64,000 nt of DNA from assembly GCF_030684315.1 (NCBI RefSeq), contig NC_081372.1, positions 28,535,481 to 28,599,480 of the forward strand. Direction: 5' to 3'. Positions 21,846 to 64,000 of this stretch are shown in pieces. Every line of letters starts with the position of its first letter. The first letter of the stretch is position 1. The stretch is from Stegostoma tigrinum. Taxonomy: Eukaryota. Made by a program: the position numbers and the translations under genes. The notes below the pieces were generated by a model. It ran no database searches, was not told the origin of the DNA, and saw only the letters and a list, made by a program, of their open reading frames with translations.

Positions 21846-21869
21846 GGTTTCTTGGGTCACTTCTGGTAA

Positions 21870-22400: not shown

Positions 22401-25400
22401 AGCCATGTGGAAAGGTTGATCAATTTATGTTGGTTACTTTGAGGATTCTTAACGGAATGGTTAAATTGATGTCAGCAATGTGTTTGAGTTTGCAACAAAT
22501 TGCTAGACCAAGTTCAGGAGAAGGAAAGTGCATTGTTATTTTAGCTTTAGCCATTTCTCCTGCACAGTACTGAAAGAGGGGTTAGCCAGTTTCTGGTTAT
22601 ACATAGTGTAGGAGATCTTAAAGGAGATAACCATTTGAGAAAATGAATGGTTCAGCATACTGTTTAGGGACTGATTGAATGGACTGCAAAATCTATTCAG
22701 TTCCTGTATTTCCTTATGTTGTGTAATGAGATATTTGGACTTGTGTAATATGCTCATGTGGCCTTGTACTTCCAGAGAAAGGAACCAACACTCAAAAAAA
22801 ATGAATAGTTTTATAGTGACCCATGTGTTTAACTGAGGATCCAAATTATGTGGTTTTAACAGCTGACCTTTTTATTTTCTTTAATACTAATACTGAAAGT
22901 TATTCTGGTCCAAATATCTATTTACACAAAGCATTATATAATGAAAGTAGAACACAGTGTTGAGGCTTACATCATGGTACACTGCAGTTTCGAAGTTAGA
23001 GTGGCTTTAAAGTTGTTGAAATGTAGGTACTGGTGCCTGTACAAAGTGGCAAACCTAGGCAAAATGGAATCAACAGAATTCAAGCCTGTTTGTTTGACAT
23101 AATATCCTGTTCAACTGTTAGAATGCTGTTTTTGTTTGAAAAAAGCAAGATTTTGAAATGTGTAACTAAAAGACACTTAGTAACTTCAGAAGACTACAGT
23201 TTTTGCTCAAGCACTTTGATGTTGCTGACTAAATAATTTGTCAGTTAACTGATGAAAGCTTTCTCTGAGTGACCTTTTCCTGCCAGTCACAGTGGAACTT
23301 GTTTATATGCACAATGTTTTATTGTGGTAGGAGAGATCAGTAGCTTTTGGTCACTTAGTGCATTGTTGAGTGTGCTTGATCTTATTTGGAGTATAAATGT
23401 GAAAATGCAAGCACAATTGGATGTTTGCTGACTTGTGTTCGGGTGAAATAAATTGTGATTGAGTCAATCTTGTATATTCTCCAATAGCCATTTGGAGAAA
23501 TATGCTGGCAAAGGTTTAGAGCATGTTCACTTATTTATGTTTCAAGTGCATAATAATATTGGGAGATGGTGGGGAGGAGAGAGGGAGAGACATGAATTGT
23601 TTCCTACTTCAATAATAAATAATCCTGTAAATTATAAACTAATTAAAATGTGCAGTGTTAGTAAGCCTTTAAATCAGCTTACTAATACAGTTATCCGATT
23701 ATTATGTTTCAAATATTTACTTCCAACTGATTTGAAAGCTCCTAAAATTTTGGTAATTCCGCCCACATGTGGAATGTGACTACTTGCTATTTTTCCTTAT
23801 AGCCTTGATGTGATTCTTTGCTATTTGTTCCCAAGTATCAGCTACTTTGCAACTGCCTTGGCGGTTTTATGTTATGTTTTGGCAGGCACGAACGAAACTA
23901 GGGTGTAAATATTTGAATTGTATATAAAGTGACCATTCACTAGTTTGGGTTATCTTGGGTTATCCTACTGTTAAAAGCCACCTAATTGATTTGTTTCTCA
24001 AAAATACTGTTATTTTTATTGTTGCTAAATTATATCAAGTAATTCAGCTGTAGCAATAACCAAGCTCCTGTGCGAATGAGTTGTTGAAAATAATCATAAG
24101 AAATAGCGCAGAACTATTGCATGAAGTAACTGAAATAATACAATATGATGTATAGTATTTTCACAACAGCATGACAGAAAAGACCAGTTGTTGGTATGAA
24201 AAAAAGTGTTGGAACTAAGGCGGGATATCCAAGTGAAGTGACATGATGAAGTAAACATATCTATTCTAATGAGAAAGCTTAGGTAGGCAATGAGTCATAT
24301 GGCTAAAACAATCAACATATCTGGAAAGTAATGGAATGATTTTCAGTTGGAAAAGGGCCACAACAAATATGGTGAGAATGCATGTGAGAAGAACCTGACC
24401 TTGAATGGAAAAGTCACAGTAAATAGATAGTACAAGAACTGGAGGAAGAAAGATTGCCGAGGGTGCCTCTTGTCAGGCTAGCCTGATATGATGACTGACT
24501 GACTAAAACCTACCTAAACAAACGTTACAAAAGTGTGTTTTAGCCTATGAATATTTATTTTTAGGCCACAGAGGACTTCTATTTTTAATTTGGCCCCTCC
24601 TCTCTCCTGAAGGGAACTGATTGTTGGTATTGTCCCACAATCACATTTGTATTTGAGCTGAAATGGCCAGTATTGGTAGGCATTTACTTGTGAAAGAGAT
24701 CGTGAATTAGCCTAATCCTGTTGAACACTCACACAAATTTCCAATTGGAGTAAAAGCTGCAGTTCCTAGCACATTTCCTAAAGCTAGCTGACTCCTGTCA
24801 ATAGGGAGGATTGAACCTAAGGTTCTCTGAATTTTTTTCATGCAGTTTTATTGAAGAGTGCGCTTGTCTGTTGGTCTCTGAAGGCAGCAGACATTATGGT
24901 TTGAGGTCATTTATATGCTTCTCCAAGTACCTGTCAAAGTATCATATCAAGTATAATAGACCAAGGACATAATTTCTTAAACTGAAGGAATGCTACTTGC
25001 TTATATAGATTAATGCAAATTCTGTGGTTAAAATTAAAGCCTATAGTAAAACTAAGTTACCGCGTTAATAGCTGCTGGAATCAGGTGATGCAATGAATAA
25101 TGGAATCTTGAGTCCATGTAATGGTTCTCTGGTACTGACACCTGGTCAAATACCAGATCATACATTATCAATTTGTTTTTACAGCTATCACGACTTGCAT
25201 TTCATGAATATTAAGCTGTTAGGCAAAAGTTTGCATTTCAAAATTACTTGCCAATGCTTATTTAAATATTTCCCATATGTTTGTTAAGTAGTTTTAAAAC
25301 TGCAGTACCCAAACATTTTCCTAGCCACCATCAGAGCTGAGGAAGGATCTCTCAACCTGAAGCGTTAACTATGTTTTCTGACCACAGACAGTGCCAGACC

Positions 25401-25952: not shown

Positions 25953-37048
<11,096 letters not shown>

Positions 37049-37678: not shown

Positions 37679-37696
37679 AATAAATAAAACAATAAA
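37679..37696 (+). terminator. Cluster of three AATAAA polyadenylation signals, probable PCMTD2 3' end
   Basis: AATAAA at 37679, 37683 and 37691, ~630 nt after the stop codon in AT-rich, repeat-free 3' UTR-like sequence. Confidence 0.6.
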
Positions 37697-39730: not shown

Positions 39731-40988
39731 TGTGATAGTGTTAATTATCACCTGTCCAACTCTGGCAGCAAAGAATATTTTTTACAATTTTTTGCTTATT
39801 CATATGCACATCACTGGCTGGCCAGCATTTGTTGCTCATCTCTAGTTTCCCTTGAGAAGGTAGTGGTGAGCTGCCTTCTTGAACTGCCGCAGTCCTCCTG
39901 CTTTGAGTTGATCCTCAATGCCATTAGGGAGGGGATTTGAGGACTTTGACCCAGTGACAGTGATAGAAAATGGTGATATACTTCCAAGTTAGGACTGTGA
40001 GTGGCTTGGAGGGGAACCTGAAGGTGATGTTACCATGTATCTGTTGCCCTTGTCCTTCTAGATGGAAGTGGTTGTGGATTTGGTAGGTGCTGTCTGAAGA
40101 TCATAGGTGAATTTCTGCAGTGTAGATTTCCATATTTTCAGGTTTTAATTGTTAGGAATTCAAGCGTAAATGTTCTAACTTTATAGTTTCTCTTTCTTAT
40201 TCTTCATTTACTTTCTGTATTTGATTTGAAATTAAATTCATTCACTTCAGATTACCCCACCTCTGCCCTTACACTATTTAGTTCAGAAATCTTTCAATCT
40301 GACTATTGAAGCAGATAACCGGTGCCTCTCATACCCAAATTCCCTCACAGAAACATTATTACCTCACACCACAGCAATTTTTCATTTAAATGATTTTATA
40401 AAGATAAAAGTAAAAGATGAAGAGAAATAAATTATTAGATGCCCAATCTCAACAAATTAAACTATGCAGTATTCACTTTTTTTAAAAAGTCAATGGATTT
40501 TTGCACGTTTCTGCTACACTTTGAGGTGCTGTGTGACCTCGCCCCTGAATGACCTAGCTCTAATTTTAAAATTATACTTTTCATCAGCGGAAATAGTTTC
40601 TTTCGAACTGTCCTACTAATTCGTTTAATAATCTTAAGCACTTCAATTAAATCATCCAGTAGACCACTTCTTTCAATGTCTTGGCCAAACGTTTTTCCTT
40701 CAAACACCATCGCAAAAAAAGATTTCCCTTTCTTTTGAGAGTCAGGTTTGTGAGACGGGTCAAAAAAATGATCCGATGTATGCGACGTCTTTACATCATA
40801 ACTCTTACTTGCAAAATGTGTATCCTCATAACGCTATAAAACCTATGAGGTATACACTGAAATTTTGATTTTATAGATACATGTTTTCATTTCATTCAGT
40901 TCAATGGGCCGTAGAGTTTGGAAAATTTAGATAGGACAGGGATACTAAAAACAAACTAGTGGGAATTTTTTAAAAGGTAGAATCATTT

Positions 40989-41007
40989 TAGCCACTAGGC
41001 GGCTCCT
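40989..41007 (+). promoter_or_regulatory. Candidate CTCF-binding site
   Basis: tagCCACTAGGCGGCTCc resembles the CTCF core CCACYAGRKGGC; lies between the PCMTD2 3' end and peroxidasin-like exon 1. Confidence 0.55.
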
Positions 41008-41453
41008 TTAAGTAAAATGAGATCGGGCAGTAATTTACAAACACACGAAGTTGTTAAAATCGACCAAGTTGAAAGGAAAAAAGTACGTTTTTGAAACGCT
41101 CGGAGAAATGCGTTTATCTAAGATTCTAAATGTTAAACTTTGCAAAGTTTGCGTTTTCTGAATCTCGACATTTGAAAGGAAAGGATAGTCATGTATATTG
41201 AATTATTGGCATAGCTTAATATATTTACGTTAAGTATCGATAGTATTAATTATTATTTCATATGCATATGAAATGCATTCATGTAGTAATTCTCAGAGAC
41301 AGGATTGTGTGAGTGGCTTCTTGAAACGACCGTTTGAAATTGACTGGTTTGATACAGTACACGTGCCTCCTGCAAGCTCCTGCCTCGAAGTTTAATTGGG
41401 CTTGAATCTGATCACTGGCGTTCGGATGAAAGTACATTCGGCACCGCTTCATC

Positions 41454-41614
41454 ATGTTGCCAAAGTGGTTCCTTTTTTTAGTCACCGTTTTTTTGTTTTT
41501 CGCACCTCTGTGTTCGTCTTGCCCGAGTCGGTGCCTTTGCTTTCGGACCACAGTGCGATGCATGCATTTAATGCTAGAAAACGTCCCCGAGGTTTCCGCA
41601 CAGACAACTATTCT
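41454..41614 (+). CDS. Peroxidasin-family gene (PXDN/PXDNL-like), first coding exon: [53 protein letters not shown](L)
   Basis: Manual translation from atcATG at 41454 gives a hydrophobic signal peptide, then the peroxidasin [22 protein letters not shown]. Strong donor CT|gtaagt in phase 2 at the position where PXDN exon 1 ends (...QTSIL|DLRFN). Lies in a CpG-rich region. Too short for the ORF track. Paralog identity unresolved. Confidence 0.92.
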
Positions 41615-44600
41615 GTAAGTAGCCTGTTGTGCTCCATAAGCCATTTGATTTCGGATCAGCGGCAGATCCTGAATTGTGTGAATCAATTAAGAGGTATCCA
41701 AGGTGTGTCTTTAAAATGGTCACGAATTTAGGCTAATTTTTGTATCATTGTTTGAATTGATGTTCTTGTACGAGTTAAAAGTTTTCGAAACTTGACCGTG
41801 GGACGACTTGCACTTTTACGGTGACTTCGGAAGAGGAGACGTGTTTCCCTTTTGTCGAAGAAAACCGTAATAAGCCAAAAGATTTACCAAACTGAGTATT
41901 TCTTTGCGTTAAAGCTTATCTCCACTGAAGTACGGAGTACTGCATATTGTCTAGCGTCTAGGAAGTTAAAAGGCGGGTTAACTATGAACATTTTAACAAT
42001 ACTGAAAGTACGGAGAATATTCTTTTTCCCCACCGAGGTTTCCCAGGTATCTTTGATAAATTTTTCCCTTCCTTTGATTTGAGGTTGCTTGGGCATGTAT
42101 CCCCTTCCCCTCCTTTGGTTGAGAGATATGTAAAGCAGAGTTTTATTTGTGTGTTAGGAAATTGCTGCAACCACTGATCAGTTAACGTGCTCAGAACATT
42201 AATTTCAAGAGAACGTTAATGGCAGAAGGAATAGTGCTACATATTTGTTTTCCTTAGCAACAGATTGCATGTTTCTGGGCTTCACGAATGATTTGTGTCA
42301 CGAAGTGTGCTCCTAAAAGTTCACAGTGAGTAAATAGATTTTCATTCATTTTAGACAGGTATTGTTGATGGTGACTTGAAAGTAAGTGGTTAAGATTAGA
42401 AGTTTCTCTTGATGATCCTTGCTTATACTGAAAACACAGCTTTACTTCCTTGGCTAACAGCGACCACAAGTTAGCTTCATTTCACAAAATATCATACCAG
42501 GCTAGTGAGCAACATGTTTGGCTTTCATTTGGAATTGTATGTGATATACCATGTATTCCATTTTTCAATTAGCTCACAGGGAATTCAAGTTAAAATATCT
42601 AATTTCATGTTTGTTTTGAGAGAAAGTTATCCAAAAGTAATCAGCTGAAAATCTACTGGCATGGCATGATTTATCATGCTTAACTTTATCCCATCTGCTT
42701 CAAAGCAGTAACAGAAATTGACTGTCCCTGTAGTATTCTTCTCTGACTTTGATCCTGTGCTTGTGATGACAATTTTATGTAGTATTAAGTCCTTAGTGAG
42801 TGCCTTACTACAGTGCAATCCATTTTGGATAAGAGCAAAGTATGAAAACACTCAAGAGTAAGGGCTTGGATGTCTTCCAGCATCTTTGATGTCCAGATCA
42901 GATCAAAGAGAGGTTTGAAAAGAAACATGATAATTAATTAGAACCCGGAATTAAAACAGATTTCAGACATGGCTTTTCAAAATCTGATAAACAGTGCGCA
43001 TTACCAAGGCAAAGCAAAACATCAAGAGGCCTGTTCTGATATGTTCTGTGGCAAGCATTAGAAGAGTTATTCTAATAGTAAATTGAATTGATTAAGTATA
43101 GTAACTGGCAACTGATGTTCAATAATTTCTTCACAATACTTCTAATACTTGATGAGTGATCAACAAAGACAGCAGAAAAGCTTACTCAGCTTTCAATCTC
43201 ATACAATATTGGCATAACCATATATTCCTTTTAATGGTATGGAAGTAGATGGACTGGCAAATTAGGTTAACGGAGGTCAGTAGAGATGCAGAGGTAAACA
43301 TTTAGGAAATATTTCAAAATATGAAGAACACAACATCCCTCTGAGTCAAAAATTCCAAAGAGCAGATCAGTGGTTGACTAAAAAGATTGGGAAGTGGCAT
43401 GAAGGGGAAATTTCAGGTTGTGGTACTTTGTTGCATTTGCTGCCCTTATCCTTCTAGATGATGTCATCATGGATTTAGAAGGTGCTGTCTAAGGAGTTTT
43501 GGTGAGTTTCTGCAGTGCATTTTGTAGGTAATACACACTGCTGCTACTGAGCATCAGTGATAAAGGAAATGAATGTTTGTGGATGTGGTGCCAATCAAGA
43601 AGGCTGCTTTGTCCGGGATGGTGTCATGTTTCTTGAGTATTGTTGGAGCTGAACTCATCCAAGCAAGTTGGGTGGATATGCTATCAAAATCCTGAGTTGT
43701 ATCTTGCAGATGGTGAACAGGTTTTGGGGAATCAGGAGGTGAGTTATTTCCTTTAAGTTTCCTAGTCTCTGTCTAGCTCATGAGGTCAGATTATGTATAT
43801 GACTAATCCAGTTCGGTTTCTTATGAATGAAGGGATAGGTGAGCTCTGAGTGCTGGTGCGGTGTCTGGAAGTATATTTACATGCATTGTTATGAAGCTTT
43901 AAGAGAAAACTTGAGGTGAACAGTGCAATGCTTTAGAAAAATATAAGGTAGAAGATAGAAGAGAAGTTGGACTGTTTCCTGGAATCAAGGTTCCCTATGA
44001 CATGAAGACAGCAACAGTTTCCCATTTAGAAAGAGAGAGCCATTAAGAAGATCAGCGAATGTGCACATTTCTTTCTTGCAGGTCATTCAGGGGAAAAAAA
44101 TACATTTACGTGCAGCAGTGCAGTTTAACAGTCCCCTGATCAGGTCAGTAGAAAAACACAATCATGATTGGCATGACAGAGTTCCAGAAATAAGACTGTG
44201 GAAAAGGAGTTGAAGTAATTCATAATAAGAGATAAGTGAGCTGGGATCTGACATGTCCAGTGTTACAATTAGTTGAACTTATAACAAACAACTACAAAAG
44301 AAGTTTCAGCCACGGATGTGGAAAAATTCAATGTAATCAGGTAGAATCTACCTGGTTTTGTGAAAGGGAAATCTTGTTTAACCTATTACAGTTTTTGAAG
44401 GTGTAGCGTATTGTGGATAATGTGGAGGCAGTGAAAGTACTGTACTTAGATTTCCAAGAGGATTTTGATAAGATGTCTTTAGGTTATTATGGAAAATAAA
44501 GGCTCATTATGTATAGGGTAACATATTGTCACTTCATTTAATTCATCCATGGGATATGGTTGTTGCTGGCTAGGCCAGCATTCATTGCCTATCCCTATTT

Positions 44601-44749
44601 GCCTACAAGAAAGTTAAGGGTCAACCAAACTGTCCGGCAGTTTATCCGATGTCTATTACTGGAAGAATAGAAATTATGTTCACTAAAATATCGAGAAACC
44701 TGAAGTCTCCGTCATGATCTCCACTCCCTAGCCACTAATCCCATCCCCC

Positions 44750-45400
44750 TCCTCAGCATCTGTAATAGGTTGAACCAGGTTGTTCCTAATATTTGGTGAC
44801 ATATTTTACTGATTGGATTTCTGATCACACATCCATGCCATCATCAAGATTATATATTTCAACTTTGCAACATTGCCATCCCTTCGTTCATTTGCTGTTG
44901 AAACTCCCATCCATACCTTTTGTTACTTCCAGACTTAGCTATTTTAATCCACTTCTGTCTAGCCTCCAACAGTCTACCTTCAGTAAATTTGAAGTCATTC
45001 AAGACCCTGCCTTTGCCCTAAATCAAACTAAGTTCCATTCACCCATCACCCTGACTGACATACCTTGCCTCCCATTTGAGTAATGCCTCAGTTTGTAATT
45101 GTTTTGCTTGTTTTCAAATCTCTCCGTGGTTTGTAACATGCCTCCCCATCTCTCTAATTTCCTATGGCCTTATAAGTCACATATGTGTTCCTTTAATTCT
45201 GGCCTCTCAAGCAATCTTGAATTTACAATTGGTGGTCATGCCTTCAATTATCAAAGCCATAACCTTTGGAATTCCTTCTCTCACACTTTCCATCTCTTTA
45301 CCACTTTCTCTTCACCCCGCAAAACCTTTTTGACCTAATATTTCTGTGGCCTATCTTGACTCTTTTTACATTTATTGATGCTATCGAAATACAAATTGTT
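44750..45400 (+). mobile_element. L2-type LINE 3' fragment
   Basis: ORF 44793..45083: PFVTSRLSYFNPLLSSL...IQD...HSPIT, typical of the L2 RT C-terminus. Related fragment at ~26570-26995. Confidence 0.7.
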
Positions 45401-46804
45401 GGAAGTTTTCATTATTTGGTGAGTTTGCAAATTCATATAACTCCACCCCAATACTAATATAAGGTGTTGACATGATATCCTGTTCAAATAAGATGTGATA
45501 ACATCTTTGTCATTTTGCAGGAATTGATATTCCATAGTTTGTGCTGGTGCAATTGGAATATTAGGGAAAGTTTGTTTGGCATATGTCAGTGGATTTGTGA
45601 TTTTCTGCGTTCACAACTTCTTTTTTTCCCCAATCAAACATCAAATGAATTCAAATCACAATGTCCAACTTTAAACAAGATTCTGCAATTGGTTGCATTT
45701 ACTAAATAATCCTGTGAGTGCAAGAATTATGCTAAAATTAATTAGGGTTGTCATTCAGGCTTGCAGGATGGCACATATAGTGATTCAGGGCCCTGTACTT
45801 TGCAGACGCAAAGAACATGAACAGACACCACCTGTTTTAACTGAACAAAATAGGTGACAGTCATCCTGTAGTGCTTTTTTCAGGGCAACGTCTTTGCCAC
45901 TGAGCTGGCCTACCTGGTTTAAAATTTAAATAATGGCCTAGTGATATTATCTATTAATCCAGAAACTCAGCAGATGTTCTGGGGACCCTGGATTGGACCC
46001 TGCCACAGCAGATAATGGAATTTAAATTCAATTAAAAAGAAGTTGGAAAAATTAAGAAGGATCTACTGCCAACCATGAAATTACCATTTGCCAATTTGCC
46101 AGAAAACCCCATCTGGCTCACTAATATTGCCATCCTTACCTGGTCTGACCAACATATGACTCCAGATCCACAGCAATGTGGTTGACTCTCAACTGTCCTC
46201 TAAAATGGTCCAGCAAGCCACTCAGTTCAAAGGTAGCTAGGGATGAGCTGGCAGTGATTTTTAAAAAATAAAAATTAGCAGGAAATTGGGTTTATGTGTT
46301 TGTTTATCTGTGCCAGTTCTTTGAGCCATACAATGAGGTAAATGGTCTCTCTGTGTGGAAGGTTCTATAATATGTTGTAAATTTATGTTTGGTCCTGGCA
46401 GTATTTAAATGAAAACTAATTCTACAATTATACTAAACAGTTATGCATATCATTAAGTTACTGAAGAAGGCAGATATATACCTACCAAGGGATCCTGTAA
46501 AGAAGATGCGCAACAGTTATTTGTCAATCTTCACCTTTTTGCAGGCCAATCCTAGTTTTCAAATGTCTCCGTGGCCTAATTTTAGCTATAATCTCTTGCA
46601 GCTCAGGAACCCTTTGACAAATCTGTGCTTATCCAGCTGTATCCTCTTGAGTAGACCCAGTGGACTCAATGGGCCATGCCTTATGGTTTCGTTGACACGT
46701 AACTGCCCTCTATGGTTTAGCAAGCCTCTGCTTCAAGAGAAACTAATGATCGACAACAAGCTGGCCCTGTCAGTGATGCATATACCAAGAATAGGGCAAT
46801 TAAC

Positions 46805-47012
46805 TCTGGTGTACTGGCTAATATTTTTCCCTTGACCAACGATGTTAAAGTAATTATTCTTCATCACATTGTATGAGAACTTGTTGCATGCAAATTGGCT
46901 GCTTCATTTCCTATATTACAAAAGTGACCATACTTCAAAAACAATACTTTGGCTGTGTAAGTCTTTCCAATGTTCTGAACCTGTGAAAGATGCTGTAAAT
47001 GCAAATCCTTTT
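46805..47012 (+). mobile_element. Ancient SINE 3' half with L2-type tail (DeuSINE/SacSINE-like)
   Basis: ggtgtactggctaatattt...gcaaattggctgc...acttcaaaa...gtgaaagatgctgtaaatgcaa. More decayed relative at ~2170-2425. Confidence 0.45.
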
Positions 47013-48195
47013 TTCCTGTCTATAAGATACTACTTGAAACCTACCTCAGCTTAACTTAGTCATCTCCTATTTTAATGTCATCTTTGCATAGAAACCAAAA
47101 ACGTACTGCACAGAAAGAGGCTATTGGGCTGTCCTGTCTGAACTGACCGAAAAAGGGCTATCCAGCTAATCCCACTTTCCAGCTTTTAGGTTATGGAATT
47201 TCACTGTTCATCCAATTTTCTTTTTAATGCAATGAAAATTTCTGTGTCTGACTCCTCTATCAGATAGTGTATTTTAGATCCTGATTGACAATTGGGTGAA
47301 AGTATTTGTCAGCTTCGCTCTAATAATTTCCACCTATGTCCCTGATTGTTAATCACTTTTAGGAAGAGAAGTAGGTCTTCTCAATGCATTTTAAACAAGA
47401 CCTCTCGTAATTTTATACACCTCAATGAGATCTCTCCTCAGCCCCTTCTGTTTAATTGAAACACAGTCCAAAAGATGCTGAGGGATATGGCATGAATATA
47501 CTAGAGCCCACTGTTTAAAAATAATAGATCTCCCATTTAGCACTGAAATGAGGAGGAATTTCTTTTCTCAGAAGTTGTTAGCCTTAGCCTTTAAATATGT
47601 TATAGAATGAATTAGGCAGAATTAGCCACCTGTAAATTTTCTAAATTCCAATGAGTACAATCTTCTACATGGAATCTTGTCAAAAGCAATGCTATAATCC
47701 ATGTAAACTACATCATATTTGCTACCCTTGTTAACTTCCATTGTTATTCCTCAAAAAATTTCAAACCCATTAGACATGGCCTTTCCTTAACAAATCCATG
47801 CTGACTGTGCTTGATTAATCAGATTTATAATGCCCCTCAAAACATATTTCCAATGATTCATTCACTATTGAGGTTAGCTCACTAGTCGTAGTTACTTGGT
47901 CTATCCTCTCTTCCCTTTCTAAACAACCGTACAAAATTAGCAGTCTGTAGCCAGAGAAGATAGCAAAATTACAATCAGAGCTTTCATTATTTCCAGCGTT
48001 GTGTATTTTAGTAGTCTGAGCTTGCTGACTTGTGCACTGTGAAAATTGTATTTATACCATACGGTATTCCACATTCCATTCCTTAACCACAATATCTGCA
48101 TTGTGTCCCTTTTTCAAGATGACAGATATGAAGTATTAATAAAACAAGCACATAAGCAGTTGTTTCAATCCACTTTTGCCAAATCAAGGGGGAAG

Positions 48196-48510
48196 CATTG
48201 GCCTCGTAATTTTGTCACTAGATTATTAATTCGGAAACCCAGGTAATGTTCTGGGGACCCCTGTTTGAATCACACCATGGCTGATGGTAAAGTTTGAATT
48301 TGTAAAAACCTGGATTGAAGAATCCAATAATGACCACAAAACCACCGTTAATTTGTCAGGAAAAACTCATTTGATTCGCTGATGTCCTTTTGGGAAGGAA
48401 ACTGCCTTAGCATGGTTTACATGTGACTCCAAATCCACAGCAATGTGTTTGACTATTAACTACCCTCTGGGCAATTAGCCAGTAATATTGACATCCTGTG
48501 AATGATTTTT
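48196..48510 (+). mobile_element. tRNA-derived SINE-like family copy
   Basis: Shares ccagaaac.cag...aatgttctggggaccc and gtgactcca.atccacagcaatgtg.ttgact with copies at ~45935-46260 and ~10040-10335; degenerate B-box. Confidence 0.55.
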
Positions 48511-49068
48511 TTCTCAATCCCAACTTGATAAAGTTCATAATTTTCAAGCTGAAACTCTTATTCTGGGACTGTCATCTTTTCCTATAAGCTAAATCTAACT
48601 GTATATTTTTCCAAACCACTAAAAAAGCCCAACCATGCTTGACCTGCTATGTTCATCCAGCTCTACACCTTGTTATCTCAGATTCTCCAGCATCTGCAGT
48701 TCTTCCTATCTCTGAACGAATTTCAACCCCATGCTCCTTTCTTCCTGCCCAACTTGATTTCCTAAAACTAAGCCCAGGATTGCCTCTCTTTCACTTGGGA
48801 TTTGCCACACCCTGACAAAGTTCTCCTGAATGTTAAATAAGAATTCTGCACCTCTCTACCATTCACATTGCTTTTATTCTGGTTAATGTTAAGACAGCAA
48901 TTGAAATCATCTTGTATTACTCTTTTTGTTTCTGCACTTTTTAGCAATTTGTCTAATTGAAATAGTTACTATTAACCATTGAAAAACTGAATTGGTTTTG
49001 TTTTGAGATAATAAAATGTGAGGCTGGATGAACACAGCAGGCCAACCAGCATCTCAGGAGCACAAAAG

Positions 49069-49102
49069 CTGACGTTTCGGGCCTAGACCCTTCATCAGAG
49101 AG
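49069..49102 (-). ncRNA. Minimal hammerhead ribozyme motif (intact copy)
   Basis: Reverse complement reads ctctCTGATGAagggtctaggcccGAAACGTCag. Confidence 0.75.
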
Positions 49103-49322
49103 GGGGATGGGGAGAGGGAACTGGAATAAATAGGGAGAGAGGGGGAGGCGGACCGAAGATGGAGAGTAAAGAAGATAGGTGGAGAGAGTATAGGTGGGGA
49201 GGTAGGGAGGGAATAGGTCAGTCCAGGGAAGACGGACAAGTCAAGGAGGTGGGATGAGGTTAGTAGGTAGATGGGGGTACGGCTTGGGGTGGGAGGAAGG
49301 GATGGGTGAGAGGAAAAACTGG

Positions 49323-50534
49323 TTAGGGAGGCAGAGACAGGTTGGACTGGTATTGGGATGCAGTGGGTGGGGGGGAAGAGCTGGGCTGGTTGTGTGGTGC
49401 AGTGGGGGGAGGGGGCGAACTGGGCTGGTTGAGGGATGCAGTAGGGGAAGGGGAGATTTTGAAACTGGTGAAGTCCACATTGATACCATTAGGCTGCAGG
49501 GTTCCCAGGCGGAATATGAGTTGCTGTTCCTGCAACCTTCGGGTGGCATCATTGTGGCAGTGCAGGAGGCCCATGATGGACATGTCATCTAGAGAATAGG
49601 AGGGGGAGTGGAAATGGTTTGCGACTGGGAGGTGCAGTTGTTTTTTGCGAACTGAGCGGAGGTGTTCTGCAAAGCGGTCCCCAAGCCTCCGCTTGGTTTC
49701 CCCAATGTAGAGGAAGCCGCACCGAGTACAGTGGATGCAGTATACCACATTGGCAGATGTGCAGGTGAACCTCTGCTTAATGTGGAATGTCATCTTGGGG
49801 CCTGGGATAGGGGTGAGGGAGAAGGTGTGGGGGCAAGTGTAGCATTTCCTGCGGTTGCAGGGGAAGGTGCCGGGTGTGGTGGGGTTGGAGGGCAGTGTGG
49901 AGCGAACAAGGGAGTCACGGAGAGAGTGGTCTCTCCGGAAAGCAGACAGGGGTGGGGATGGAAAAATGTCTTGGGTGGTGGGGTCGGATTGTAAATGGCG
50001 AAAGTGTCGGAGGATGATGCGTTGTATCCGGAGGTTGGCAGGTTGGTGTGTGAGAACGAGGGGGATCCTCTTAGGGCGGTTATGGCGGTGGCGGGGTGTG
50101 AGAGAAGTGTTGCGGGAAATACGGGAGACGCGGTCAAGGGCGTTCTCGATCACTGTGGGGGGAAAGTTGCGGTCCTTAAAGAACTTGGACATCTGGGATG
50201 TGCGGGAGTGGAATGTCTTATCGTGGGAGCAGATGCGGCGGAGGCGGAGGAATTGGGAATAGGGAATGGAATTTTTGCAGGAGGGTGGGTGGGAGGAGGT
50301 GTATTCTAGGTAGCTGTGGGAGTCAGTGGGCTTGAAATGGACATCAGTTACAATCTGGTTGCCTGAGATGGAGACTGAGAGGTCCAGGAAGGTGAGGGAC
50401 GTGCTGGAGATGGCCCAGGTGAACTGAAGGTTGGGGTGGAAGGTGTTGGTGAAGTGGATGAACTGTTCAAGCTCCTCTGGGGAGCAAGAGGCGGCGCCGA
50501 TACAGTCATCAATGTACCGGAGGAAGAGGTGGGG
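49323..50534 (-). CDS. Penelope-like polyprotein fragment: RT C-terminus (FLRYIDD) + GIY-YIG endonuclease
   Basis: YIDD at 50516-50505 is in frame, with no stops, with ORF 49323..50192, which contains CNRRKCYTC and NVVYCIHCTRCGFLYIGETKRRLGDRFAEH. Confidence 0.9.
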   Translation of the reverse strand, partial: PHLFLRYIDDCIGAASCSPEELEQFIHFTNTFHPNLQFTWAISSTSLTFLDLSVSISGNQIVTDVHFKPTDSHSYLEYTSSHPPSCKNSIPYSQFLRLRRICSHDKTFHSRTSQMSKFFKDRNFPPTVIENALDRVSRISRNTSLTPRHRHNRPKRIPLVLTHQPANLRIQRIILRHFRHLQSDPTTQDIFPSPPLSAFRRDHSLRDSLVRSTLPSNPTTPGTFPCNRRKCYTCPHTFSLTPIPGPKMTFHIKQRFTCTSANVVYCIHCTRCGFLYIGETKRRLGDRFAEHLRSVRKKQLHLPVANHFHSPSYSLDDMSIMGLLHCHNDATRRLQEQQLIFRLGTLQPNGINVDFTSFKISPSPTASLNQPSSPPPPTAPHNQPSSSPPPTASQYQSNLSLPP

Positions 50535-53292
50535 TTTGGGCCTGTGTAGGTGCGGAAGAGGGACTATACTCTCTCCACCTATCTTCTTTACTCTTCATCT
50601 TCGGTCCGCCTCCCCCTCTCTCCCTATTTATTCCAGTTCCCTCTCCCCATCCCCCTCTCTGATGAAGGGTCTAGGCCCGAAACGACAGCTTTTGTGCTCC
50701 TGAGATGCTGCTTGGCCTGCTGTGTTCATCCAGCCTCACATTTTATTATCTTTGAATTCTCCAGCATCTGCAGTTCCCATTATCTTTGGTTTTGTTTTGG
50801 TCTAGTTATGCTGTAAAGCATATTGGACTGATTTGTCCCAGTAAAGGTTCTGTGTAAGTACAAGTTGCCATCTCTCTGTATGGAGGAGTAAAGAGGAGAC
50901 TAGATATTAACTCACTACCAGAAGATTTAGAAGGGTCATCAAATCAATGTTACATGTGCTCATTTGCATGTGGCTCATGGGAGAGAGAAATGAAGAACAT
51001 TAAGAAAAAGTTGTATTTTTAAGAGATCATTCTTTATGTCAATTTTTCTTACCAATTTTTTGAATTGCTGAATAGTATGTAACACATCAAGTCATGGGAT
51101 GGCCTAACTTTGATCTTGCTACAGAAGCTTATAGTGACAATTTGCTTTACATGCTTTGATAACAGCAACATCTGTAGCTCATCAAAGTATTTTGTGTTGA
51201 CTCTAGGCATGGTGAAATCTCACTACAGATCGTTGTTGAATCATCTTAAAAAGAAAATTAATGCTCAAACTACCCCAATCTACTCTTGTGTTTTTGTCTG
51301 CAAACTAGTACGAAATTAGAATCATTGAGTGGAGCTTGGAGCTTGAGATTTGAAGTATGGGAACTGTTAAGAAATAATACAATGAAGTACATCTTGCTTT
51401 CACTTGAGTTTTACCCAGCTTATGAATGCTTGGTGCAAATGCTAAACCATGAATCTTTCAGTTGGAATAATTTTGAATGGCGCACGTAACACATTTATTT
51501 TAAATTGATTAATTCCAGGTTAAAATTATACAGATGCTACATTTAAGTCTTGGATTTTTTAATGGAAATATGTTCAACTCCTGAAACTGATCTCTCACAT
51601 TATTGAGCACAAATTATATTTTTTTAAAGGAAACCTGCATGCAATAAGCTCATATTTCACTATCCTGCAATATAGTTCTTATTTCTTTGTTCTTTGTACC
51701 TGAAAAAATTTAAAGTATCATGAATGTAGTTAACTGGAGCATAATAGTTCTGATTGCCCTCTTGGAAGGCAATTCAAACTCTGTACAGGGCACCTTGAAA
51801 ATTCACTAGAACATGATGAGGAAATGGAGGTTACAGCGATAAAGAAAGGCTTAAAAAAAGGTCTATGCTTCACTGGATTAACAGAATTAAGGGCAGGATG
51901 TTTAACAGAGGCCTTCAAAAAGGAGAATGTAAATGGTGAAAGAATGTTTCCACTGGTTGGTTCAATGGCATCAAGGGCATCAGCTCAAAATGAACATGAA
52001 AAGCACAAAGAAAAATGTTGGGAGACATTTCATACCACGCGTTACTTCATCACAAGTAATTACTGAGCTGAAGACTATTAAATCATATGAAGAGAGTTGA
52101 ATAAATATTTTAAAAGAAAGGATGTGAAAGGGTAGGGGAATTTAATTGGGGTAGATAGTTTCAGTTGAACTAACACTGACACTTGCTGTGCTTTCTACGT
52201 TTAAAAAAGATTCTTAACTGCTCTGAAATGTCAAGTTTTGAAAAGCTGGTTAAATGATTGATGTGATATTTTTCCTCAAATTATTGTTAATCTATTATTT
52301 AAAGCATTGCCAGTTTTCTATTGCATATTTATTAAACAATGTTCAACATTCTAGATTTTATTTGCATAACTCTCCGATCTTGTTTTAATCTCTACTTTGA
52401 AGCTAAGTCCTGTAATTTATCTTTCCCACTTCAGTCACACTTTCTACATTGTTATGCTTAATACATGATCTATCCTTTTTTAATTATTTCGGCTTCCCTT
52501 CAATATCTCCCTTTTTAAGCCACTAGTTTTCAAAACAGGAAGTAAGCAAACCTCCAGGAGTTCACAAATACACCAGATTTTTTTTCAAAGATAGTAGGAT
52601 TTTTTCAGTTTGTCATGTAAACAAGTTATTTATTATTCAATGAAATAAGAATAAACCAAATCTTTTTCACTTGCAAGATTAATACTGCATTTCAGAAGTC
52701 AAAACAGGAAGTACTGGTGAGCATGTTCATATCTGAAAAGATACCTCACGTAAAGATCCAAATTATCATTTCTCCTGCCTTTGACGTGTTTTCTTTTTCC
52801 TCCTGTTACCCTTCTTGGTAATTGTGAATTTGTGAAACTGAACAATTTTGGACAAGGAGCAAAAGTTTTTCTGCGTTTCTAGAAACCTGCTAATAACTTC
52901 AAACCATTCAAAATAGTTTTTGCTTGCTCAATAGGACAATACTTAACTATCTGTACAGGCGAACTTCTGAAGTTGGAGTTTTAGCAGAGAGAGCGCACCT
53001 GGTTCTTGGGACTCCTTTCTAACTTAGTGGAGTTGTTACCAAAGCCTGTTAATGTTGGCTAGTCAGTGACTATAGCATATTTAATCCTGAGGGCATTCAT
53101 GTTGTACCATTCAAGATAGGAAGGTAAGCTTATAAAGACCTGATACCCTTTGAAATACAGCATTGCTGGCTCATATTTATTATACAGTTCTAAGTACCCT
53201 CGAATGGTGATAAGTTGCCTGTTGAACCCCTTCTCTCCATGTGACAAATAGCAGTGAGAGGCAACTGATTGGCTTGCTAGGCTACTTCATTG

Positions 53293-53846
53293 TCACAACT
53301 CATATTCCGCCTGGGAACCCTGCAGCCATATGGTATCAATGTGGACTTCACCAGTTTCAAAATCTCCCCTTCCCCCACTGCATCCCTAAACCAGCCCAGT
53401 TCATCCCCTCCCCCCACTGCACCACACAACCAGCCCAGCTCTTCCCCCCCACCCACTGCATCCCAAAACCAGTCCAACCTGTCTCTGCCTCCCTAACCGG
53501 TTCTTCCTCTCACCCATCCCTTCCTCCCACCCCCAGCCGCACCCCCAGCTACCTACTAACCTCATCCCACCTCCTTGACCTGTCCGTCTTCCCTGGACTG
53601 ACCTATCCCCTCCCTACCTCCCCACCTACACCCTCTCCACCTATCTTCTTTGCTCTCCATCTTCGGTCCGCCTCCCCCTCTCTCCCTATTTATTCCAGTT
53701 CCCTCCCCCCATCCCCCTCTCTGATGAAGGGTCTAGGCCCGAAACGTCAGCTTTTGTGCTCCTGGGATGCTGCTTGGCCTGCTGTGTTCATCCAGCCTCA
53801 CATTTTATTATCTTGGAGTCTCCAGCATCTGCAGTTCCCATTATCT
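53293..53846 (+). mobile_element. Penelope-like element 3' fragment (end of GIY-YIG + terminal repeat)
   Basis: QLIFRLGTLQPYGINVDF matches the C-terminus of ORF 49323..50192; near-identical to the reverse complement of 49006-49520. Confidence 0.9.
53717..53750 (+). ncRNA. Minimal type I hammerhead ribozyme motif in Penelope terminal repeat
   Basis: ctct-CTGATGA-a-gggt ctag gccc-GAAAC-GTC-ag: catalytic core, stem II, palindromic ACGU stem III and GUC cleavage triplet. Confidence 0.75.
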
Positions 53847-55399
53847 CATCCACTATTGCTATTGGTTTTGAGTCTCGCACAGGATAAGCCAGGTCATGGT
53901 GGCAGATTTCCTTCCCAAAAAGGGATTAGTGAACAGATGAGTGTTTACAACATTTTACAATAGTTTCATTATCACCATTAGAGTAGCTTTTCATTACAGG
54001 TGTATTAATTGAATTCAAACCAGTGTCTTCAGCGTTTTAGCCTGCTTCTCTGGCTTTCCAGCCCAATGATATTACCACTGCATCACTGCCCACCTCTGTA
54101 GATGTACCCACAGTACTATTAAGAAGACAGTTATAAGATTTTGACTCTGACAGTGATGGACTAATGATATAGTTGAAGTCAAGCTAATGTGTGACAGGGC
54201 CGCTAGTAGTGTTCCCATGAGACAATTGCGCAGGTCCTTCTCGGGAGTAAAGATTTTTGATTTGGAAGGTACTGTTGAAGATGTCTTGGTGCCTTGCTGT
54301 AGTACATATTGCAGTGCTGTTTGTGGATGGGGAGCTAACCAAGCAGGCTGGAGTTGAATTTCTTCAATGTTGCTGATTTTCTGGGTGCACAATTTCCAGC
54401 TTCTGATCTGCTTCTGTATTCAGAATACAGCTGGTTCAGTTGAGCTTTCATCCATATTGATCTTTGGGATGTTGTGGTTTATGATTCAATGATAGTAATG
54501 CCACTAAATGACAGGGGGATATAGTTAGGTTCTCCCTTGTTTGAAATAGTAATTGCCTTACACTTTTGTGTGGTGGGAATGTTTGTTTGTCATTTATCAA
54601 ACAAAGCAAGGATGCTTTCCAGATTGTGCTGCATGTGGCATAAACTGCTCATTGAAGGAGTTGGTGTGAACTGAATATTGTGCAGTCATCAATGAACATT
54701 GCATTTCTAACTGTACAATTGTCGGGGGCGGGGTACGGTCAAAGAAGCAGGTAATGTTCAGGCTCCTGAGCCTGTCTGCTCGCTTCTCTCTCTTTTTATC
54801 CTTTCAGTTTATCTTTTATTTTTCTTTTCATCCTCTGACATTGTGGGGAAGCTGGAGTGGTGTTGCTGGAGTGTTGGCAGCAGCAGTTGGCAGTACCATG
54901 AGTGATGACTGCTAGCTACAGTTGGCCTGGAGCTTGGAGTTGGGAACTCGGTGGTCTTCAGCTGCACAGTTGCAGTGCCCAGAAGAGGACTTTTGGCTGC
55001 GGCAGGCTCACAGCGTGGAATTGGTGAGTCTTTGGCTGCAATGGTGGTGGTGCCTGAAGCAGGGACCTCTTGAGGCCAGGATACCTTGCAGAGACACTAC
55101 AAAAGCCCTGGAGTTGTATTTGTAGACCCCTTGAACATAAGATGAACTCTACTTACATAATTTCTTTTCATGCCTTTTGTAACTCAAAATGGCACAGTAT
55201 TGTGGCGACAAAACAGTTTTCGCTATGTATTTCTAGAGTATGTGACAAATAAAATGTGGTTGAACTTAGGACAGTACGCTGAGGAGCTCCTACAGTGATG
55301 TCCTTGAACTTAAATATTTGGCAACGATAAATCTTTGTGCATGGCATTGTTCCAACTAATGGAGAGATTTCCCTGATTTCTACTGATTTGTTTTATCAA

Positions 55400-55699
55400 T
55401 TTTATTGGGGTTCTGTGTTGAATTTACCTTTTCGCCAAGGGATGCGTCTGTAGGATGTTATTATTTTGGAACAGTTGGTTCGGTTTTCCAATACTTAAGT
55501 TACTCTAAATTCTACTTCCTTTTGATTGTGTTTCAACTGTATTGTTTAAATAAATTTTGGTTTGCTTAAAGCTGGGTAGTTTGACCAGTTGCACCACACC
55601 TGGAACACCCACTGCATATCTGCCTTTAAAATACAAAAAAATTAGGGTCTGGTCTACCTCCTTGAAATATTTTGAGAGGATCTGGCCTGGTCCATAACA
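55400..55699 (+). mobile_element. Possible solo LTR fragment
   Basis: AATAAA at ~55549, then a U5-like stretch ending ...ggtccataaCA; 5' boundary unclear. Confidence 0.35.
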
Positions 55700-55851
55700 T
55701 GGGTCGTTGTTTATGGGATTGCCACATGTTGTCAAGCCGCTGAAGCCATGGATTGTTGTGCTGGTGCTCACCAGCCCGTAGATCATGTCACAGTTTCCTT
55801 CTGATGTCCAATCTTGTGTCTTCAGGATGTGAGAATCAATGGTTAGCACCT

Positions 55852-56310
55852 TCTTTTCATGTAGGCAGCCATGCTTGAAGTGCAGCTTTGGGCATCCTGC
55901 CAGTAAATTGGCTCTGGCTACATCACCCCACCTTAGCTGTGTGACCATCTTCCCTCCTGTAAATAGGCCTGAGTCAGTGAAGCCACCTCTGCTATAAATG
56001 TTTCAATCAGTGCCAACATAATTGGAAACTTTGCCTTTGAGAAGACTGAAACATTTATGGTTTTGTCCTGCCCTTAGTTGCCCAGAATGTATGGCCCTGG
56101 AGATAAAATATGCTGAGCAAGCAGATCTCAAAAACCAGCAACTTGGTTCCATTAAAGAGGACCAGATGAACAAAGAACATAGAACAATACAGTGCAGAAC
56201 AGGCCCTTCGGCCCTCGATGTTGCGCCGACCTGTGATCTAATCTAAGCCCATCCCCCTACATCTTTTCATGTAGGCAGCCATGCTTGAAGTGCAGCTTTG
56301 GGCATCCTGC
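55852..56310 (+). repeat. 49-bp exact direct repeat (55852-55900 and 56262-56310)
   Basis: tcttttcatgtaggcagccatgcttgaagtgcagctttgggcatcctgc occurs twice. Confidence 0.95.
56172..56261 (-). mobile_element. Very short CR1 3' end
   Basis: aagaacatagaacaatacagtgcagaacaggcccttcggccctcgatg matches 15911-16000. Confidence 0.8.
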
Positions 56311-58299
56311 TAATAATGAAGAGACACCTGACTAGCTTGGAAAGGTGACTTGGGAAAATGACATTTCATGTGGTGTACTGCAAGCTGATGCACCTAGGAA
56401 ACAAGTATAGCTGAACTTATATAAAAATGATTCCAGGTATGGACTCACCACAGGAATGGAATCTGTATGTAATTGTGACTAGCTCAGTGAAACCAACAGT
56501 GCGGTTTTTATTTGCTATGGGAGGCTAACTGAATCTTGGATTAGTCAAAGGAATATTGCAAAAAGAAATGATAGTTTAAACAGTGCCGTGATATTATTAC
56601 ATCCAATGTACTGTGTAAAACCTTGTAACAGACTTAAGATATTGAGGAACAAAAGCATAAATTGCTGGAAAAGCTCACCTGGCCTGGCAGTGTCTGTGGA
56701 GAGAAATCAGAATTGACCTTTTGTATCCAGTGATCCTACCTCAGAACTTTTCTAGCAATTTCTGATTTGGTTTCTGATTTCCAGCATCCTCACTTCTTTT
56801 AGTCTTTACTAAGATATTGAGGTATTAGGAGCAATGGGGAAAATAAAGGGTATCCAATGTGGTAGTGAGCTGGCAATATCTGACCTATGAAAAGAGTTTG
56901 AAAGGTCTGACACTGTGTATTCTGTGCTGGTGTGAAAATGAATCAGTTTAAATACTTTGCGCCCTGCTGCAAGAATCTGCTGGTTAAATCCTGATGGTAT
57001 GTTTTTCATTATAATTAATTGAAAGAGGATCACATTTAGAAGAGAATGAGTCAATGTAATGCTGGAGCTATGTGTGTGGAATGTATTATCCTAAGAGGGA
57101 ACTAGAAAAGAGTAAGGAAGAATTGAATAACAACAGTGAAGGAGTTTGTGGTTTAGAGATTATCTTTGGAACCAAATGAAATGCACAGTTATTTTTCTGG
57201 TCCTGTTCACTTATAAATCAAATTCTTGTTCTGAACAAAAATTAACATAGTTATATGTTATTTTGTGTGGTCAGGACTGCGGTGACGTTGCCACATTGGA
57301 GGAGATTAGTTATGAAACATAGAGGATGAGGAGGGAAACCAGTACAGTATTTTGAATGCTGGTGTAGAAATTAGAGAAACAAAAATCAAAACTGTGGAGA
57401 TAGTGTGAGAGCATCACACAGTAAGAAGGAATTGTTGAGAGTTATATTTAATATATTGAAATGGCAAAAGATGTTGTGCAAAAATATTATAAGACAAAAT
57501 GATGCTGAACCACATGGGACTATGGGAAAGACTAAAAGATTAAACAAATAGAACTGAAGCAGCAGAATTTTGATATATATGGAAGAAAACCAAGCACCAT
57601 TCATAAAATTAATGGAAAGCACGTGTTTCCGATATTTATGATGGCTTCTGCAGAAAGCTAGTTAGATAAGACAGTAATGCATATATATTTAACAAAATTC
57701 GTTTTCTATTTATTCATGTCAGCCACATTCTGAAACATAATTTCTATGCTATTTTCTTGGATACAGGCCCTAGTTACCAATGCTTTATCCATTTACTAAT
57801 GATTGAGATAAAAGTTGAAAATCTACGCCTGACTGTTTATATGTAGCTTTTTACTGCGGTTAAGAGCAGCTGGAATGATCTGGAGTACATATATAGCATT
57901 TTAATGCTTTGAAACTTCTACAATTCAAAGAGAATGTCTTGAGCATTAGCCGCAAACTGTAATAAGGAATAAAATATAAATTGTGCCAAAGCAGAGTGCT
58001 ACAGAAACTCAGCAGATCTGGTAACATCTGAGGAGAGAGAAATATGTTTCAATCCAGTGTAACTCTTCTTTGGAACTGTTCTGAAGTAGAAGTGCCTTTT
58101 GATATCAATAGGCCAAAGATGGAAAGATTTTTATTTGAAGAAATGAACAGGAGTAGCACAGAAAATAATGGAAATCTGAAACAAAAATAAAAATGCTTAA
58201 AAGCACTTCATGGAATGGGTGGCATTCACAATGAGGAAATCTGCAATGCTTCACACATAACCGCTGCTTCATAATGGAAGATATGATAGAAAACAAACT

Positions 58300-58660
58300 T
58301 CTAAGAATGGGCAGAGTGAGGATTAGTGGATGAGGAGTGATTGAGATCTGCAAATGATGAAATCAATGTCAAAGCCAAATGGATGCAAAGTACCTCTTAG
58401 AAAGGTGGTAGCATTCATCAAACTTGTATTGAGATTCACTAGAGAATTGTAAAAGATCGAGGACAAACTGTTAAAATGGAAGCGTGTTGGAGAATTGAAA
58501 TGGCAGAAAACTGCAACCAGAGGGTCATGCACAGAGGCTGAACATAGATGTACATCAAAGTGATCACTTACTCTCAACTTAGTATCCTCTACTTTGGGAC
58601 GACCACACTGTGAGTAACACACACAGTAAAATGCGTTGAAAGAAGTATTAATAAATTGCT
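58300..58660 (-). mobile_element. Old degenerate Penelope-like GIY-YIG fragment
   Basis: ORF 58323..58622 (CSQCG...DTKLRVSDHFDVHLCS...VAVFCHFNSP...LRGTLHPFGFDIDF) parallels the GIY-YIG C-terminus of ORF 49323..50192. Confidence 0.6.
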
Positions 58661-59354
58661 GTTCATATGAGGGGCTGGTTTGGTAAGTTGTGGAAATTTA
58701 TTGATTATGAGGAATAGGTTGAAATGGGCCTAGTAAATAGAAGTGTCGAATTCTTAAGCAAATGCAATAAAATTCTTCAGAATTCTATCATTGAAAAATT
58801 GAAAACGGTGTGATATGTGTTAGTATTTTACTTGAGTTACTGTTGTTTTGTTTTTAGTTATCATGACTCTTAGTCCAAGCCACTTAGTGATTAATTTTGC
58901 AGGCCTTATGATGTGTCTGAAAACTCTGGTCTGACTTCACCACATGTAAAGGTACAGAATGAGTCTGAGGGAGAAACATTGGGGTATTTGCATAATTTCT
59001 CGAAAATCTAGACTGTTGTCAAATGAAGGATGTCTGACTACGTTGACAGTGCAATCAAATTGGTCTGTGTTGTCTTTGCTGTTTTCAGCTGGCTGATATT
59101 GGGAAATTTGATAGGTTTATCTTCCTGGTACAGTTGTCCTATGTGAGATCTTTCCATCAGGAAATTGCAACACTAGTGTGGGTCTTACATGTTCCAGAAG
59201 TTGTTGAACTGTAAGAAAAACAGCCAATTTAGAGATGTATTAGGCTATCATTGTTTAACTTGATGACTTGGAAGTCTCACTACCAGTTTGTGCATAATTT
59301 TTATTTTAATTCTTCAGCTCCAAAATTTCAGATAATTTAAAGTTTAACTTCCAG

Positions 59355-59893
59355 GATGTCTGGAATACGGTGTCCAGTTCTGGTTGGCCAGTTAAAGGAA
59401 TATTATTATTAAGCTGGAGATGGTTCAGAAGAGATTTACGAGGACGTTGCTGGGCCTGAAAGGTTTGAGTTGTAAAGTAAGACTGGATTGGCTAGGAATT
59501 GTCATTGGAGGTTGAGAGACAACCTTATAGAAGTTTATAAAGTAATGAGAAGTATTGATAAAGTTAATGGTAGTTGTCTTTTCCCTGGGATGGGGGACTT
59601 CAAGACTAGAAGGCACATTTTTCAAGTGAGAGGAGAAAGCTTTTAAAAAAGGCATAAAGGACAAATATTTCACATAGAGAGTGGTTCGCATGTGTAATAA
59701 ACTTCCTGAGGAGGTGGTAGATGTGGGAACAATTACAACGTTTAAAAGGCATTTGGATATGTACATGAATAGGAAAGGTTTGGAGTGATATGGGCCAAGA
59801 CCGAGCAGGTGGGACTAGTTTAGTTTGGGATTATTTTCAGCATGGACTGAGTGGATGGATGGTCTGTTTCTGTCCTGTGTGACTCTATGACTA
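59355..59893 (+). mobile_element. CR1 3' fragment
   Basis: gaatacggtgtccagttctgg...ttcagaagagatttacgagg; gtgactctatgactat tail. Confidence 0.82.
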
Positions 59894-63981: not shown

Positions 63982-64000
63982 AATTACATTATGTATTTTA

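Follow-up and report, generated by a model that had tools for sequence, protein, structure and literature searches.

Two peroxidasins have been reported in humans (PMC3533774), and the vertebrate enzymes have been placed in two branches (Soudi et al. 2012; PMC3533774). Does a short exon of the zebra shark, Stegostoma tigrinum, lying downstream of a PCMTD gene, belong to one of these branches, or does it mark a third peroxidasin? We addressed this question in a window of 64,000 nucleotides, by which we mean the whole stretch of DNA analysed, and in the proteins related to its two genes. The gene that starts with this exon is referred to below as clade 3.

PCMTD2 and the exon behind it

The features of the window used in the analysis are the following:

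21751..22500, no strand: CpG-rich region 5' of PCMTD2, probably holding its promoter and non-coding first exon
26028..26334, + strand: PCMTD2 coding exon 1
27593..27695, + strand: PCMTD2 coding exon 2
29816..29987, + strand: PCMTD2 coding exon 3
32121..32244, + strand: PCMTD2 coding exon 4
36666..37048, + strand: last coding exon of PCMTD2 with the TAA stop (whole protein 362 aa)
37679..37696, + strand: two AATAAA hexamers between both genes, candidate PCMTD2 polyadenylation signals
40501..42250, no strand: CpG-rich region spanning clade-3 exon 1, likely an independent promoter
41454..41614, + strand: coding part of clade-3 peroxidasin exon 1 (161 nt, ends in phase 2)
41454..41519, + strand: signal peptide of 22 residues, part of clade-3 exon 1
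from 41520, + strand: LRR N-terminal cap, part of clade-3 exon 1
41615..41620, + strand: splice donor GTAAGT, directly 3' of clade-3 exon 1
41615..64000, + strand: clade-3 intron 1 (more than 22.4 kb) with retroelement fragments; exon 2 beyond the window

The five upstream exons have AG/GT ends and join into a single open frame of 362 aa. The encoded protein is identical to XP_048406381.1 at 362/362 positions, whereas six PCMTD1 proteins of sharks and rays are 59–69% identical to it. A tree of 33 rows placed it with shark PCMTD2, the split between PCMTD1 and PCMTD2 being supported at 100/100, and its forced placement as PCMTD1 was rejected (AU p = 0.0015). The identification of the upstream gene as PCMTD2, made earlier from the DNA letters, was thus borne out. 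A candidate GTAAGC donor is present near position 22039, inside the upstream CpG-rich region. PCMTD2 coding exon 4 is flanked by a 194-bp direct repeat (31717–31910 and 33466–33659; 100% identical), which is either a recent duplication or an assembly artefact.

The stop codon of PCMTD2 ends at 37048, 4405 nt before the ATG of the peroxidasin exon on the same strand. This exon begins at 41454 with an A at position −3 and comprises 53 codons plus 2 nt (...ATT CT/GTAAGT). Its translation starts with a hydrophobic leader of 22 residues, predicted to be a signal peptide from hydropathy (peak of 2.9 in an 11-residue window), and closes with QTTIL. A Pfam scan of the 54-aa exon-1 peptide gave no domain match; the exon end coincides with the IL/DLRFN junction of full-length relatives. 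A search of 5.8 billion proteins with this peptide yielded 92 matches out of 131 candidates (best E = 2.3e-21), and those with informative names were peroxidasins. The peptide shares 53 of its 54 residues with a protein of the whale shark, Rhincodon typus (XP_048464433.1; 1444 aa). Judged by this similarity, exon 1 at 41454 is not a chance match. The original prediction of a signal-peptide exon with a phase-2 donor, 4.4 kb past the PCMTD stop and on the same strand, agrees with both our reading of the DNA and the protein matches. The description of this exon as hidden holds for the open reading frame track but not for RefSeq, which contains models of this gene for related sharks and rays.

The mature part of exon 1 is identical to that of one stingray (32/32 residues), while the signal peptide varies. 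Over these 32 residues, 30–32 are shared with cartilaginous clade-3 proteins and 22–28 with those of bony vertebrates, but up to 30 are also shared with PXDN, and 22–30 across the PXDN and PXDNL rows. Since mature exon 1 discriminates weakly outside sharks, the placement of the window gene rests on the whale-shark match, signal peptide included. The window contains 54 residues of its own clade-3 gene, and all downstream features described below are taken from orthologs.

The region surrounding the exon (40501–42250) has a CpG observed/expected ratio of 0.82–1.36, compared with 0.26 for the entire window, in which CpG-rich stretches are few; its GC content is only 33–43%. Neither a splice-pattern scan nor a tblastn search with the whale-shark protein, which returned exon 1 alone, revealed further peroxidasin exons in the remaining 22.4 kb, so intron 1 extends beyond the end of the window. 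A second, out-of-frame ATG in weak context occurs at 41426–41428, 28 nt upstream of the peroxidasin start, and its frame is open up to the donor; if transcribed, it could dampen translation of the peroxidasin.

Intron 1 carries a 423-aa open frame on the − strand (49326–50594) with a weak GIY-YIG match (E 5e-4, below the cutoff), possibly a Penelope-like retroelement, and a 96% identical, inverted partial copy of this frame lies near 53296–53813. Two reverse-transcriptase fragments (6064–7056 and 62854–63846), 97.5% identical to each other, represent a young LINE family.

Three peroxidasin clades in jawed vertebrates

Phylogenetic analysis was performed with FastTree on 113 named proteins and with IQ-TREE (LG+G4) on 44 proteins chosen from those and from cluster listings; eight unnamed matches, four tandem-peroxidase or chimeric proteins, five kinases and redundant isoforms were excluded from all trees and counts. 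Both trees revealed three jawed-vertebrate clades, each extending from chimaera and sharks to bony vertebrates. In the 44-protein tree, support amounted to 100/97 for PXDN, 100/100 for PXDNL, 100/100 for clade 3 and 99/99 for clade 3 plus PXDNL, and the cartilaginous fishes split first within each of the three clades. Clade 3 contains the whale-shark match together with proteins of the coelacanth, salamanders, frogs, echidna, squamates, turtles, crocodilians and birds, while chimaera and coelacanth are each represented in all three clades. The PXDNL clade was anchored by the RefSeq-named PXDNL of alligator and marsupials, with no eutherian PXDNL in the tree. A site-heterogeneous analysis of the peroxidase region (29 proteins, LG+C20) again recovered these clades: PXDNL and clade 3 received 95/98 and 99/95, respectively, and support dropped to 91/95 for PXDN and to 81/99 for the grouping of clade 3 with PXDNL. 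The paralogs are approximately 65–75% identical to each other.

Constrained topologies were compared by AU tests. Nesting of shark clade 3 with shark PXDNL (p 1e-56) or with shark PXDN (p 1e-47) was rejected, as was nesting of bony clade 3 with bony PXDNL (p 4e-59); the same applied to the sister pairs PXDN plus PXDNL (p 0.0006) and PXDN plus clade 3 (p 0.0017). The two shark nestings had been named in advance as outcomes that would speak against a separate copy, while the other three constraints were picked after the trees had been seen. With a fully supported clade of its own and both nestings rejected, the peroxidasin stands apart from PXDN and PXDNL, as the original prediction had it. The clade-3 gene is almost certainly a third jawed-vertebrate peroxidasin paralog.

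The 44-protein tree and the peroxidase-region tree place the duplication that produced clade 3 before the split between cartilaginous and bony vertebrates. Two lamprey proteins took no firm position in the trees, and the root depends on these proteins and on one long hemichordate branch; the timing relative to the two genome doublings is for this reason an inferred one.

Best-hit classification of 283 named proteins assigned 111 to clade 3, 91 to PXDN (a count that includes three outgroups at low margin) and 81 to PXDNL, and 28 of a further 44 proteins also fell into clade 3. Full-length clade-3 models were found in at least ten cartilaginous fishes. In hand counts from the listings, a biased sample, no clade-3 protein was present among 23 therian proteins or among 56 proteins of ray-finned fishes, including gar, bowfin, bichir and sturgeon, for which PXDN and/or PXDNL only were recorded. 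Because the sample consists of top matches and partial cluster listings (the best 120 of 1957, outside which the fast-evolving frog copies fell), losses are likely rather than shown: clade 3 was likely lost in therian mammals and probably lost in ray-finned fishes. The gene had been described earlier as retained in the lineage of the window DNA; this was too narrow, since it has in fact been kept from chimaera to birds and echidna, a range that takes in cartilaginous fishes and most lobe-finned vertebrates other than therians. Among the amphibian matches listed, an incomplete sample, only PXDN and clade 3 occur and no PXDNL, and an amphibian gene named 'pxdnl' could in reality be clade 3.

Clade-3 orthologs are already present in RefSeq and GenBank, mostly as 'peroxidasin homolog' (e.g. 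whale shark XP_048464433.1, chicken XP_040544049.1 and echidna XP_038605963.1), a name that does not distinguish them from PXDN or PXDNL. The expectation that automatic annotation would label the gene PXDN or PXDNL therefore held only for some bird GenBank entries ('PXDN protein'). The table of Soudi et al. 2012 lists turkey Pxd03 and anole Pxd03/04 (PMC3533774), which may include the clade-3 gene. In the part of the open-access literature covered by our search, no paper naming a third vertebrate peroxidasin was found; subscription papers, Ensembl gene trees and the 2026 ohnolog database may contain one. As a named gene clade 3 would be new, although it is present in automatic annotation and belongs to a known enzyme family. 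Its retention and loss follow a familiar pattern, that of a general class of ohnologs which persist outside mammals but have disappeared from therians.

Synteny and origin of the third gene

Synteny was assessed from accession order, contig sizes and fused gene models rather than from genome coordinates. The accessions of clade 3 and PCMTD2 almost follow one another, on equal-sized contigs, in Hemitrygon, Hypanus, Mobula hypostoma, Heterodontus, Chiloscyllium plagiosum, Mustelus and Pristis, and their locus tags are consecutive in Pleurodeles (NDU88_001196/001197). The two genes are fused in gene models from a bird (RefSeq XP_063205756.1) and from Podarcis; such fusions may be artefacts of annotation or may stem from genuine read-through transcripts. 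A single Chelonia model spans clade 3 together with SRMS and PTK6, genes of human 20q13.33. The same accession and contig pattern was observed for PXDNL and PCMTD1 in C. punctatum, both Scyliorhinus species and Cetorhinus, and human PXDNL presumably lies in tandem behind PCMTD1 on the same strand. By these measures, the PCMTD2–clade 3 and PCMTD1–PXDNL pairs were duplicated in parallel and reside on different contigs; according to the trees, the PCMTD and peroxidasin duplications are both older than the split between sharks and bony vertebrates. Mustelus, Heterodontus and Amblyraja carry their three peroxidasins on three contigs of differing size, so that single genomes contain all three on separate contigs. 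Chicken clade 3 is located on a 14.1-Mb sequence, presumably chromosome 20 by its size.

In the window itself, no C2HC finger exon of MYT1 was detected in positions 1–26000 (motif scan, and Pfam scan of the 32 longer open reading frames there), and two C2HC motif matches in the window were dismissed as chance. ST18, MYT1 and MYT1L have been mapped to chicken chromosomes 2, 20 and 3, respectively, within a four-fold paralogon (chicken 2, 3, 20 and 23; PMC2865548). A preprint identifies the Myt1 and St18 loci as a jawed-vertebrate pair by synteny, whereas its own tree places Myt1 basal to Myt1l plus St18 (PMC13734250). In the sections covered, the supplements on the opioid paralogon list MYT1 but were not found to contain PXDN or PCMTD, and one supplement of the 2026 ohnolog database paper had no entry for PXDN, PCMTD2 or MYT1.

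Lying in tandem behind PCMTD2, clade 3 is a paralog both of PXDN in the MYT1L region and of PXDNL in the PCMTD1/ST18 region. The topology (PXDN,(PXDNL, clade 3)) agrees with two genome doublings in succession. In the first, PXDN would have split off; in the second, the PCMTD–peroxidasin pair would have been copied, giving rise to PCMTD1–PXDNL and PCMTD2–clade 3, and clade 3 would later have been lost in therians and probably in ray-finned fishes. We regard the origin of clade 3 by whole-genome duplication as a well-supported inference and highly probable. That the third paralog is real but stems from an early segmental duplication of the PCMTD–peroxidasin block appears improbable. Our analysis spans two gene families, the lamprey copies do not date the split and MYT1 does not lie within the window, all of which leave some room for such an event, but the three loci fall on the published four-fold paralogon that includes the MYT1 family (PMC2865548), and the PCMTD and peroxidasin duplications both predate the shark/bony split.

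Two readings of the exon would dispense with an intact third gene. It might be the start of an ordinary PXDN or PXDNL moved beside PCMTD2, or of a shark-specific duplicate of either; the high conservation of exon 1 across all three paralogs (22–30 of 32 mature residues) and the naming of some clade-3 proteins as 'PXDN protein' or 'peroxidasin' are compatible with this view. It is hardly credible, however, given that the AU tests reject both nestings, that chimaera, coelacanth and several sharks own all three genes, and that clade 3 is linked to PCMTD2 from chimaera to birds; the trees refute it provided that the window protein matches its 53/54-identical whale-shark relative. Nor, in all likelihood, is exon 1 the relic of a gene decayed here, or an exon used mainly in PCMTD2 read-through transcripts, even though no other exon lies within 22.4 kb, a bird and a lizard have read-through models, and a weak out-of-frame ATG is present 28 nt upstream. 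The ATG with A at −3, the open frame and the canonical donor are intact, the surrounding CpG-rich stretch is a likely promoter, and candidate polyadenylation hexamers follow PCMTD2. Moreover, the mature residues match those of a stingray at 32/32 positions while the signal peptide varies, and full-length models occur in at least ten cartilaginous fishes. Taken as a whole, the locus is very probably best explained by an intact third peroxidasin gene, the PCMTD2-linked ohnolog.

Predicted enzyme and its possible role

Domain scans of the clade-3 orthologs of whale shark, chimaera and coelacanth detected an LRR array, four Ig domains, an animal heme peroxidase domain and VWC. The shark protein thus has the same domain order (signal, LRR, four Ig, heme peroxidase, VWC) as PXDN (hsPxd01, VPO1), with which clade 3 shares the catalytic, trimer and furin-site residues and 76–81% identity in the peroxidase domain. 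It differs from PXDN in being a separate, PCMTD2-linked gene on another contig of the same shark species, in the lack of VWC in its tetrapod members and in its absence from human. From PXDNL (hsPxd02), its sister (99/99), which likewise lies in tandem behind a PCMTD gene, it is set apart by its own shark-to-amniote clade, by its neighbour (PCMTD2 instead of PCMTD1) and by the equivalents of Gln823 and Asp826, which are replaced in human PXDNL (PMC8533639). All 12 non-eutherian PXDNL rows, marsupial included, also keep this distal Gln and Asp, so the loss of PXDNL activity appears late.

The equivalents of human Q823, D826, H827, R977, E980, the proximal His, C736 and C1315 are present in 14/14 clade-3 alignment rows (human numbering from PMC8533639, PMC5377774 and PMC3533774; marsupial PXDN maps with a constant offset). 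Among 57 clade-3 proteins, the heme motifs WGQFxDHD, RxxE and the proximal Asn motif were each found in 57 and FRFGH in 56. The heme-binding residues, whose inspection had been suggested at the outset, are therefore intact in the orthologs. A strict Ca-loop pattern was matched by 43/57 proteins and a furin pattern by 44/57, the misses in the 21 proteins inspected being mostly conservative variants or alternative C-termini. Whale-shark clade 3 has both trimer cysteines (C736/C1315 equivalents) and RNKR at the proprotein-convertase site (human R1336); the furin site reads SKR in rays and coelacanth, and RRE in one frog. No solved peroxidasin structure was among 45 PDB matches, the nearest being MPO and LPO.

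VWC is absent from 7/7 tetrapod clade-3 copies scanned, and the last 80 residues contain 0–1 Cys in 30/30 tetrapod copies versus 10–11 in 6/6 fish copies. In 3/3 amphibian rows Ig4 is absent as well. Furin removes VWC from PXDN, which raises its activity, and the peroxidase and Ig domains are enough for cross-linking (PMC10657184, PMC5377774); loss of VWC thus need not impair the tetrapod enzyme.

Extrapolating from the 53/54-identical whale-shark ortholog and from the biochemistry of human PXDN (PMC10657184), we propose that the gene is driven by its own CpG-rich promoter and that the signal peptide would direct the chain (LRR, four Ig, heme peroxidase, VWC) to the ER. The chain may form a disulfide trimer through the Cys736/Cys1315 equivalents; a furin cut at RNKR would free the VWC tail, and the product would be secreted. 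The enzyme would oxidise bromide with H2O2 to HOBr, leading to sulfilimine cross-linking of collagen IV or to bromination of other matrix proteins. By analogy with PXDN, the product is very likely an active heme peroxidase, and sulfilimine cross-linking of collagen IV is, with less assurance, the favoured candidate for its main job. A main substrate other than the collagen IV NC1 domain (tyrosine bromination, dityrosine cross-linking of another matrix or a secreted antimicrobial oxidant) seems rather unlikely, although the tetrapod copies without VWC (0/7 scanned had it) and the amphibian copies without Ig4 (3/3) would accord with it, as would retention for more than 400 million years beside PXDN, which suggests a separate role. 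Against this, shark and coelacanth copies retain the full PXDN architecture, and the maturation of PXDN removes VWC in any case, peroxidase and Ig domains being sufficient for cross-linking (PMC10657184, PMC5377774). A bolder idea is that clade 3 cross-links the matrix in a non-redundant way, in a tissue and on a substrate of its own, and could harden oviduct-made egg coats (shark egg cases, eggshell membranes), the tetrapods having a hard-wired mature form by deletion of VWC. Egg-related genes have a distribution similar to that of clade 3, which occurs in cartilaginous fishes, coelacanth, amphibians, sauropsids and monotremes but was not seen in therians. However, live-bearing sharks and rays keep the gene and egg-laying ray-finned fishes seem to be without it, and we consider this role doubtful at best.

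A third peroxidasin branch, catalytically intact as judged by its residues, means that work on basement-membrane cross-linking in chick, frog, salamander, lizard and shark could be aimed at the wrong gene or measure its amount, or could meet with a redundancy absent from mammals. The natural domain deletions (no VWC in tetrapods; neither VWC nor Ig4 in amphibians) offer a test of which domains sulfilimine formation needs. Intact clade 3 and intact non-eutherian PXDNL together suggest that three active peroxidasins were present in early jawed vertebrates, and that humans, with one active and one inactive, would show a derived condition.
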